Part shown: piece by piece, positions 10,166 to 14,859 of the stretch
How positions within the stretch are numbered: the first letter of the stretch is position 1
How the letters are laid out: every line of letters starts with the position of its first letter
IMG/VR virus record: IMGVR_UViG_648276656_000008
DNA from: a virus
Lineage: Duplodnaviria > Heunggongvirae > Uroviricota > Caudoviricetes
Reading direction: 5' to 3' (one strand)
DNA length: 15,267 nt
Translations under genes and position numbers: made by a program
Notes under the pieces: generated by a model
The model's input: only the letters and a program-made list of their open reading frames with translations
Database searches by the model: none
What the model was told of the DNA's origin: nothing

Positions 10166-10435
10166 GGCTATTTCATTATATGTTATCTGTGCTGGAGTAA
10201 TAAGTTTACGGTATTAAGAAGCATTTTGACGAAACAATCAACTGACTTATCAGCTAAGGTGGCATTGTAATGCGATCTGATTGGTATCATCAGGACGCTG
10301 TTCAAAAAAGGGGGATTAGTTGATCTTGAAATCTTGCTCAAAATGTGTAGCCTCTCGTTTAACTGCCAACTTTTTGGGGCAGTACACTCTGATGCTACAC
10401 AACTTGCAAGTTTCATTACCCCGACGTAAACATTT

Positions 10436-11104
10436 ATGACAGTTGCTGATTTCAAACGTCCTAAGTTGGAGCTCCCAAACGGGGCAAACAAACTACTATT
10501 ACACTCTTGTTGTGCACCATGTTCCGGTGAAGTGATGGAGGCTCTTCAGGCCTCAGGAATCGACTACACCATCTTCTTCTATAATCCGAACATTCATCCT
10601 CAGAAAGAGTATTTGATTCGTAAGAATGAGAATATTCGATATGCTGAACAACATGGTGTACCGTTTATCGATGCTGATTACGACACTGACAACTGGTTTG
10701 AGCGAGCCAAAGGAATGGAATGGGAGCCCGAACGTGGGAGGCGTTGTACTATGTGTTTTGACATGCGTTTTGAACGGACGGCGCTGTACGCCGCTGAAAA
10801 TGGTTTCAGTGTGATCAGCAGTTCACTGGGCATTTCTCGCTGGAAAAATATGCAGCAGGTTAACGACAGCGGACGGCGAGCTGTCGCACATTATCCGGGC
10901 ATGGTGTACTGGGATTATAACTGGCGCAAGCAGGGAGGCTCGTCCCGCATGATTGAAATCAGCAAACGCGAACAATTCTATCAGCAGGAATATTGTGGTT
11001 GCGTGTATTCACTTCGCGATACCAATTTACACCGCAAATCCCAGGGACGCCCTCTTATCAAAATTGGTCAACTCCACTACGGTAAAGAAGAAGGGCAGGA
11101 ATGA
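10436..11104 (+). CDS. queH: QueH-like epoxyqueuosine reductase (DUF208 family)
   Basis: 222-aa product with the N-terminal [11 protein letters not shown] motif, a central RCTMCF and a C-terminal YCGCVYS cysteine cluster, the pattern I associate with DUF208/QueH. No clear Shine-Dalgarno before ATG 10436. Confidence 0.65.
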
Positions 11105-11413
11105 TTTTTACATTACGTCAACAGAGTGTCACAACGTTTCTATATATGGTATGCCGACCGTAATTTTCGAATCATCATGACTAATAGGCAGGTCACCTAT
11201 GCCAGCAATGACCTGCTCATCTTGAAATTAGCAGAAATCTTGTAGCTATGATGTAGCTCAAAATAGTTTTTCATTCTTTTACCTGATGTCTGTTCCTGGC
11301 TGAAAACAGACTGTATTATTTAATTACGCACCACTGACACTTGTTTATTGAAGTAGTGAGTACAAAGCCACATATTTATCAGTGTATGTATACGTCAAAA
11401 ACAGGAGATTGTT

Positions 11414-11503
11414 GTGCTGGTTCTGAAGTGTGCGTTAGCAATAGTGGCTGTGGTGGCAATTTATTGCCTTGTTGTTGTTCTTATGGAGCGACTTTCTGAT
11501 TGA
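11414..11503 (+). CDS. Putative small hydrophobic peptide (29 codons, GTG start)
   Basis: AGGAG at 11403-11407, 6 nt before GTG 11414. Product (M)LVLKCALAIVAVVAIYCLVVVLMERLSD is one predicted transmembrane helix with a charged tail. Not in the ORF track. Confidence 0.35.
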   Translation: MLVLKCALAIVAVVAIYCLVVVLMERLSD

Positions 11504-11715: not shown

Positions 11716-12054
11716 CTATTTTTTGGTGCTATAGACTTTTTCGCCTGAGAAGTCTGGAGCGACCCAAAAGTTAATATTAAACTGAGCATCATCGCTTAGT
11801 TCAACACGGTGCCAGTATTGTGGTGGGCTTGTTGCAAAAGAGCCAGCATTAATAACTACTTTTATCTCTGGTTCAGTAGTATTCTCATCAGCAAAACCAT
11901 AATATGTTACAGTGCCTTCCATTACGCACAACTGCCCAAAAACACCTGCTGCTGTATTATGATGTGTTAATAATGCTGAAGGTACGTTCTCTTTTGTGAA
12001 GAACGGAGTTGAGCGTTTGATTACCCAATCTTTAGGAATTCTCTTGTGTGTCAT
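11716..12054 (-). CDS. DUF1971-family protein (YeaR/TehB-N-terminal-like)
   Basis: 112-aa product MTHKRIPKDWVIKRSTPFFTKE...YYGFADE...FNINFWVAP resembles E. coli YeaR as I recall it. GGAGGTG lies 5 nt upstream of ATG 12054. Confidence 0.65.
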   Translation of the reverse strand: MTHKRIPKDWVIKRSTPFFTKENVPSALLTHHNTAAGVFGQLCVMEGTVTYYGFADENTTEPEIKVVINAGSFATSPPQYWHRVELSDDAQFNINFWVAPDFSGEKVYSTKK

Positions 12055-12705
12055 AACCACCTCCTATAAAACATGCATTATGAATGCTCCTTTTGAGGAG
12101 TTATGTCAAGCTGTTATGAAACACATAATTGATATGTTGATTAGAGGAGTAGATAGAATAAATATGGTTGTTTTTGGTGTAACTACTTGTTTTTCTTTTG
12201 GTTTATGCATTCTGTGTGTTAGGAATAAGTTATTAAAGTTTAATCAAGAAATCTCGATGCATTCCACATAGATTACTGTTACTGAACCTTATTGTGTGCA
12301 TTAGTTGTGTTCTGAAATTTCAGCTTAATTATTTATGATATATTTTTTAACGATAAATGTTTTCCCAGGTGAAAGACAGTTGGGAATAAGATAAGTAATA
12401 TATCATTAATCCTGATTATTCCCAGGTACCTTTACTGTGCATATAAATAAATCATATATGCATCAAATAGTGTAAAGGCATCCTTTTAGATATGTCTTAT
12501 CAAATGTTAATGACTTGAGTGGGAAACATGATTCCAGCAACTTATCATGTGGCTACTTTATAAAAATAATGCCCATATAAAACAACAAGCGAAAAGGATT
12601 ACGGATAAAAAAGGAGCGAGATGTGCAAACTTGTTATTTTCCATGTTTAACCACCTTAAATAATTGATGATGACGGGATGATTGCATCTGTAATGCTTTT
12701 ATTGA

Positions 12706-12740
12706 AATGTTATGATAAAAAAGAACTTTTTCATAACATT
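12706..12740. repeat. 35-bp near-perfect palindrome in ORF-poor AT-rich DNA
   Basis: Arms AATGTTATGA (12706-12715) and TCATAACATT (12731-12740) are perfect reverse complements; the 15-nt centre is itself partly symmetric. Confidence 0.6.
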
Positions 12741-12924
12741 AAAATGTAATTTAGCTAATCGTTTTTAATAATAAGTGTCGTATTTCTATCCTTGTACCAG
12801 CTATTTGATATGTAGTGTTTGTTCATGCTATGTGGGGCTTTACACCATAGCCAGTTTATTTATACTTTATTCGTCAGCCTGAACAACTGGCATCTGCTGC
12901 ACTGCGCCATAGAGAGATTGAGAA

Positions 12925-14705: not shown

Positions 14706-14781
<76 letters not shown>

Positions 14782-14784
14782 TAT

Positions 14785-14859
<75 letters not shown>

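Follow-up and report, generated by a model that had tools for sequence, protein, structure and literature searches.

That Escherichia coli makes tRNA carrying epoxyqueuosine (oQ) and queuosine (Q) is established, and QueH is a non-orthologous replacement of QueG for the conversion of oQ34 to Q34 on tRNA (PMC5372724). The queG gene was found in E. coli K-12 through the accumulation of oQ in single-gene knockouts (PMC4646009), and a passage of the same paper that cites Frey 1988 describes the final queuosine step as cobamide-dependent in E. coli and Salmonella. Staphylococcus aureus reportedly carries both QueG and QueH, which are differently expressed, and the authors of that study read this in terms of cofactor availability (PMC13443448). 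Queuosine-pathway genes are also carried by viruses, some phages putting preQ0-derived bases into their DNA, and a 2019 survey of such genes reported no QueA, QueG or QueH in the viruses analysed (PMC6884629). Our own literature search retrieved no paper describing a phage-borne QueH.

The window considered here, i.e. the whole 15,267-nucleotide stretch of viral DNA that was analysed (IMG/VR record IMGVR_UViG_648276656_000008), contains an open reading frame that an initial annotation, made from the sequence alone, had assigned to the DUF208/QueH family. Below we describe the protein, its prophage setting and its distribution, and weigh the possible explanations for its presence in phage genomes.

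The phage gene encodes an intact QueH

The queH coding sequence (Table 1) has the same boundaries in the RefSeq annotation of a genome that is 100% identical, where the product (WP_000214879.1, hereafter the window allele) is named "epoxyqueuosine reductase QueH". The Pfam profile of the QueH family, PF02677, matches it essentially from end to end (profile positions 1-174 of 175) with 221.3 bits and an E-value of 1.2e-65; given the Pfam cut-off of 23.5 bits, this is far beyond what chance would produce. The search against NCBIfam matched no model to this ORF, and a comparison with the sequences of the PDB retrieved the crystallised QueH from Thermotoga maritima at E 3e-22, with 31% identity.

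All three cysteine motifs typical of the family are where the initial annotation had seen them, at residues 20-30, 103-108 (RCTMCF) and 186-192 (YCGCVYS). Cys25, 26, 104, 107, 187 and 189 of the window protein correspond to Cys9, 10, 87, 90, 169 and 171 of T. maritima QueH, in which, as Li et al. reportedly found in 2021, the cysteines of the CCAP, RCxxC and YCGC motifs bind a [4Fe-4S] cluster and an adjacent iron. An alignment of 14 diverse QueH sequences, with identity down to 31%, contains 26 invariant columns, and the window protein keeps every one of them, including the six cysteines, none of which is lost. The position of T. maritima Asp13 is occupied by Cys29 in the window protein; a cysteine is also found there in the 13 other aligned sequences, so that Thermotoga appears as the exception and the window protein as a member of the majority. 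The D13N mutant of T. maritima QueH has been crystallised (PDB 9dco). The window protein has terminal extensions, comprising about 19 residues at the N-terminus and a basic stretch of about 26 residues at the C-terminus, which are common to other QueH proteins of Enterobacterales.

An AlphaFold model built on 30 homologues (pLDDT 79.3, pTM 0.81) has the adenine-nucleotide-alpha-hydrolase-like fold and superposes on T. maritima QueH (7lc5) with a TM-score of 0.83. The best five PDB matches to the model are all QueH entries (E 5e-11, TM-score 0.83 when normalised to the target, rmsd 2.6 A), and the next ones, TtuA-type enzymes with E 1e-4, are weaker by about six orders of magnitude. The profile match, the conservation of the ligands and the predicted fold together uphold the family assignment: the ORF is a genuine, intact QueH.

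Prophage setting and neighbouring genes

A Rac-type lambdoid prophage of E. coli 13TMH22 contains the sequence of the window with 100% identity; its gene order and integration beside ttcA bear out the prophage location given in the initial annotation. The left part of this element reads intR-xisR-rcbA-ralR-recT-recE-racC-kilR-sieB and is followed by repressor and cro-like genes, ydaT, a replication gene, ydaV, DUF1627 and DUF977; then come a 90-residue ORF on the minus strand, queH, DUF1971 (also on the minus strand), DUF1367, DUF1364 (YbcO-like) and a DUF1133 Q-like gene, and finally tRNA-Thr, tRNA-Gly, lysis genes, trkG and decayed tail genes. This element is defective: only pseudogenes remain of its tail genes, and it has no head genes.

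The two tRNA genes, the only features detected by an Rfam scan of the window, lie 3.6 kb downstream of queH, in agreement with the initial annotation, which had also correctly set them down as non-queuosine tRNAs. As neither is a queuosine substrate, a functional tie between them and queH was rejected. In the ST131 prophage it is tRNA-Ile and tRNA-Arg that precede the lysis genes, i.e. the tRNA cargo varies among these phages.

Table 1. Coordinates, strands and characteristics of the features discussed; positions are those of the window unless another sequence is named
Feature	Position	Strand	Remarks
K-12 Rac deletion	9005 to beyond window end; L001 19206-26569; NC_000913.3 junction near 1423201		
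90-aa ORF, hypothetical, WP_000686865.1	9893-10165	-	divergent from queH
Conserved leader, ~50 nt before ATG	10386..10435	+	from alignment of four phage/prophage alleles
queH CDS, 222 aa	10436..11104	+	ATG start, stop codon within coordinates
Hairpin GCAGGTCA-N13-TGACCTGC	11188..11216	+	84 nt past queH stop; read from sequence, MFE fold
29-aa hydrophobic ORF MLVLKCALAIVAVVAIYCLVVVLMERLSD	11414-11503	+	GTG start, AGGAGA Shine-Dalgarno just upstream, unannotated
DUF1971 gene (YeaR-like, resembles TehB N-terminal domain)	11716-12060	-	convergent with queH
tRNA-Thr(UGU)	14706-14781	+	between Q-like antiterminator and lysis genes; Rfam
tRNA-Gly(UCC)	14785-14859	+	between Q-like antiterminator and lysis genes; Rfam

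The cargo next to queH differs from phage to phage. The DUF1971 gene (GC 0.40, GC3 0.32), which matches phrog_34268, a family of "unknown function", occurs in only 3 of 80 related viral loci. On the strength of this rare co-occurrence a functional link with queH was rejected, and the gene looks like cargo in its own right rather than a partner of queH. The 90-residue ORF (GC 0.38) is likewise found in only 3 of the 80 loci, and searches of Pfam, NCBIfam, PHROGs and PADLOC assigned it to no family. Between DUF1971 and DUF1367 there is an AT-rich segment of 860 bp (12061-12924, GC about 0.33) with short ORFs only, in which RefSeq annotates no gene and Rfam finds no match. A PADLOC search with QueH, its two flanking proteins, DUF977 and DUF1627 returned only a marginal match for DUF1627 (E 0.0034), so membership of these proteins in a defence system was rejected.

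The 29-residue ORF falls within a block of about 375 bp (11110-11483) that follows queH in the Rac-type phages and in those of the type of phage HannyBb, and that is deleted in the ST131 and O157 alleles. Two alleles of this ORF differ by eight synonymous and five nonsynonymous codon changes, a ratio which suggests that the peptide is real. Our searches matched it to no family, and we regard it as a candidate small membrane peptide or toxin. A hok/mok-type locus comes after this ORF in HannyBb.

Loss of the gene from K-12

The Rac prophage of K-12 differs from the Rac variant of the window by a clean 7.4-kb deletion (Table 1), which runs from inside DUF1627 (the truncated ydaW) to the rzpR pseudogene in the lysis region. 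It took DUF977, queH, DUF1971, DUF1367, the YbcO-like gene, the Q-like antiterminator and both tRNAs, and it is the reason why queH is absent from K-12. This loss fits the discovery of queG through the accumulation of oQ in K-12 knockouts.

Distribution among E. coli genomes and viruses

Among complete E. coli genomes queH is present in 995 of 5426 (about 18%), with at least 99% nucleotide identity to the window allele in 43 and 90-95% in the remaining 952. Nearly all matches (1014 of 1017) lie on chromosomes, and in 985 the alignment spans at least 80% of the gene. The queG gene is present in all 5426 genomes, hence queH always occurs in company with a chromosomal queG. A second allele (WP_000150294.1) is found in O157:H7 and ST131, where it resides in other lambdoid prophages, in the slot directly after DUF1627/DUF977. 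In the three annotated prophages (Rac-type, O157 and ST131) queH is immediately preceded by DUF977, and what follows it is DUF1971 in the window, a restriction-modification system of the NgoMIV type in O157 and hokD in ST131. The gene thus has two features of a moron, namely a position at a module boundary and variable presence among related phages.

The complete genome of Escherichia phage HannyBb encodes a QueH with 96.8% amino acid identity to the window protein, annotated there as "hypothetical protein". It is the only verified phage record among the 25 retrieved from GenBank phages by tblastn; the others that we opened are UNVERIFIED fragments or a bacterial-looking contig, and were used solely as a source of diverse QueH sequences. 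The contig in question, CAKLQH020000001.1 ("Acinetobacter phage MD-2021a", 328 kb), has soxR, tadA, cynX and LysR-family regulators around its QueH homologue, ordinary bacterial genes which give it the look of a piece of bacterial chromosome deposited under a phage name.

In the 2.9 million viral contigs of IMG/VR, patterns for close relatives retrieved 188 sequences and family-wide motifs 199, counts from pattern-based scans that could miss divergent members; nearly all the viral QueH detected therefore belongs to one lineage. All 80 loci that were kept from the 188 relatives have an intact ORF of 221 or 222 residues, with only 9 protein variants, and 75 of the 80 carry a DUF977 homologue. 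In PHROGs v4 the family exists as phrog_3217, of "unknown function" (E 3e-133), with a profile that starts at residue 34 of the window protein, past the CCAPC motif, which suggests that the gene is called truncated in phage records.

The initial annotation had called a QueH in a prophage unexpected. This was overstated, since the RefSeq name exists and about 18% of complete E. coli genomes have the gene; among viruses in general the gene is nonetheless rare. With the identity of the protein already in RefSeq, its recognition as QueH is a footnote rather than a discovery.

Origin and selection

Outside the phages of E. coli, the nearest relatives are proteins named QueH from Erwinia, Photorhabdus, Providencia, Proteus, Gibbsiella, Arsenophonus, Sodalis, Dickeya and others. 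Whole-protein alignments with four of them gave 76-86% identity, and the genes of the relatives inspected are found at non-phage loci, for example purL-queH-sensor kinase/glnB/hmp/glyA in an Erwinia-like contig and tmcA-queH...purC-bamC-dapA in Providencia. Such identity to proteins encoded at non-phage chromosomal loci suggests that a lambdoid phage probably captured queH from the chromosome of another member of Enterobacterales. Comparison of three phage alleles gave dS of 0.29-0.48 and dN/dS of 0.03-0.05, values that indicate strong purifying selection on QueH during its residence in phages.

Flanking signals and timing of expression

In the contexts inspected, queH lies on the early-right strand, directly downstream of the replication genes. 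Alignment of the window, HannyBb, ST131 and O157 alleles revealed a conserved leader (Table 1), in which direct reading finds no Shine-Dalgarno sequence and which has no consensus promoter. Scanning of positions 10166-10435 gave no sigma-70-like site on the plus strand upstream of queH, and no terminator was called between the replication genes and queH; over the window, the sites predicted by the promoter and terminator scan were no more numerous than in shuffled sequence. As the gene has no Shine-Dalgarno sequence and no recognisable promoter of its own, and as no terminator was called ahead of it, it may be read mainly after induction, i.e. it may be transcribed chiefly from the early-right operon and not in the lysogen. 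Downstream, the hairpin listed in Table 1 may mark the end of the transcript. Its stem is kept in HannyBb, where the loop differs. The hairpin has a weak U tail and was not among the sites predicted by the terminator scan, and the 416 nt downstream of queH fold no better than shuffled sequences (z = 0.18).

Possible functions of the prophage QueH

The explanation that we favour, with a probability of roughly 70%, is that queH is an accessory gene that would allow the lysogen to reduce oQ to Q on host tRNA without cobalamin. The protein is predicted to carry out an iron-sulfur-based, cobalamin-independent reduction of oQ to Q at the wobble position 34 of the host tRNA-Asp, tRNA-Asn, tRNA-His and tRNA-Tyr, and the gene would travel as accessory cargo downstream of the replication module (DUF1627/DUF977), which is its location in the contexts inspected. 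E. coli does not make cobalamin de novo. With the cobalamin-dependent QueG present in every E. coli, the lysogen would gain a second route to finished Q-tRNA, one that needs iron and not vitamin B12. The universal presence of queG also means that the prophage QueH is always a second enzyme, with a different cofactor, and for the same reason substitution for QueG under limiting cobalamin is the best fit of the three options that the initial annotation had offered. We infer catalytic activity of QueH on E. coli tRNA and expression of the gene in the lysogen, with independence of B12 as the benefit for which it has been selected. In the literature we found no phenotypic difference between oQ-tRNA and Q-tRNA. 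A bolder proposal, which we consider speculative and rather unlikely, would have QueH act in lysogenic conversion: with the last queuosine step no longer tied to the supply of cobalamin, the prophage would shift four host tRNAs between oQ and Q in the B12-competitive gut, and would measurably alter how NAU-rich genes are translated and, in lineages like ST131 and O157:H7, such traits as biofilm formation, stress tolerance or virulence. If this were true, QueH would be the first case of a virus encoding an enzyme devoted to a step of tRNA modification that is specific to queuosine.

The same activity could instead serve the phage itself. Transcribed from the early-right region after induction or infection, QueH would raise Q over oQ on host tRNA and so tune the decoding of NAU and NAC codons for phage proteins or counter a host response. 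The position of queH, immediately after the replication genes and codirectional with them, with no promoter of its own detected and no terminator called in between, is what such a role would lead one to expect, and the gene is carried by an isolated, complete temperate phage genome, that of HannyBb. Moreover, phage infection of Shewanella shifts oQ to Q through the induction of queG (2026 preprint), which indicates that the last queuosine step can matter during infection. However, queH is also kept intact, with 99-100% nucleotide identity, in the defective Rac prophage that is unable to make particles, which argues for a benefit to the host, and a short lytic cycle leaves little time for remodelling a stable tRNA pool. 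We therefore regard a role in the phage's own cycle as unlikely, if a serious contender, and note that benefits to the phage and to the lysogen are compatible with each other. Much less can be said for the view that queH is neutral or inactive and persists only through its linkage to useful phage genes. The mosaic cargo region, with its unrelated and variable neighbours (DUF1971, the O157 restriction-modification system, the ST131 hokD), and the viability of K-12, which lost queH by deletion, would both agree with such a fate, yet it is contradicted by dN/dS of 0.03-0.05 at dS up to 0.48 and by the intactness of the ORF: the gene is intact in 80 of 80 viral loci with just 9 protein variants, 985 of the 995 E. 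coli matches span at least 80% of it, and all invariant residues are kept. We thus rejected this explanation as very improbable.

Two further proposals give QueH a part in conflicts over nucleic acids. Its target might be a 7-deazaguanine in the DNA of the phage or of the host, within a modification and anti-restriction system; phages do put preQ0-derived bases into DNA (PMC6884629), and the chemistry of QueH acts on a 7-deazaguanine derivative. This possibility had been raised in the initial annotation together with a search for DpdA and preQ0 genes, but no gene for a DpdA/TGT-like protein, FolE, QueD, QueE or QueC is listed among the annotated genes of the Rac-type, O157 and ST131 prophages or of HannyBb, and a Pfam scan of eight window proteins around queH detected no DpdA/TGT-like transglycosylase, which leaves a role in DNA modification unsupported. 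It is further disfavoured by the 76-86% identity to QueH at non-phage chromosomal loci, by the lack of a convincing PADLOC match for QueH and its neighbours, and by the 2019 survey, which ties phage modification to DpdA and preQ0 genes without QueA, QueG or QueH (PMC6884629). We give this option next to no credence. The second proposal is that QueH alters the susceptibility of the four Q-tRNAs to anticodon nucleases or to other tRNA-targeting toxins or defences. Colicin E5 cuts tRNAs of the Q family and enters the cell via the B12 receptor BtuB, so that the substrate tRNAs are shared and both processes are linked to B12 uptake, a coincidence that is circumstantial. Against it, no nuclease, immunity or defence gene consistently adjoins queH, and we are aware of no indication that nucleases discriminate between oQ and Q, so that we consider this proposal extremely unlikely.

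Returning to the favoured explanation, in which the gene supplies the lysogen with a cobalamin-independent last step, its consequences would reach beyond the phage, provided that QueH is active. Roughly a fifth of E. coli strains could then finish queuosine without vitamin B12, which K-12 cannot, and the carriers of the alleles include the major pathogen lineages ST131 and O157:H7; results obtained in K-12 on queG, on oQ accumulation and on B12 dependence would not be transferable to strains that have queH. An active QueH would also be a rare case of a queuosine-specific tRNA-modification step carried by a virus. For annotation, PHROGs family 3217 can now be named QueH, and the understanding of how QueH works is left as it was.

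Comparison with known systems

The family, the reaction and the name of the protein are already public, and the locus adds no new mechanism; what can be compared is where the enzyme is found and with what company. The window protein resembles T. maritima QueH (COG1636; PDB 7lc5, 7lc7, 9deu) in its profile, six cysteines and predicted fold, and falls in the same length class except for the short terminal extensions. It differs in these extensions, in its sequence, which is only 31% identical, in the Cys in place of Asp13, which sets it apart from the one QueH enzyme of known structure although Cys is usual in the aligned sequences, and in being encoded by a prophage and not by a chromosomal housekeeping gene. 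Much closer are the chromosomal QueH proteins of Enterobacterales (Erwinia, Photorhabdus, Providencia, Proteus, Gibbsiella, Dickeya and further genera), which share 76-86% identity, length and termini with it. Judging by these alignments, they are the likely source of the phage gene. Their genes, however, occupy non-phage chromosomal loci (such as purL-queH and tmcA-queH-purC), whereas the queH of the window sits in a slot for phage cargo, in genomes that also have queG. QueG itself shares with QueH its tRNA substrates and its predicted reaction (PMC5372724, PMC4646009), but is unrelated in fold and family, requires cobalamin and belongs to the core of the species (5426/5426), whereas queH is accessory (995/5426). 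Finally, the Dpd clusters of the phage 9g type (DpdA with FolE/QueD/QueE/QueC) are likewise a case of queuosine-pathway genes borne by phages; in contrast to the window, which has the last, tRNA-specific step alone, they supply preQ0 and a DNA transglycosylase and have no QueA, QueG or QueH (PMC6884629).
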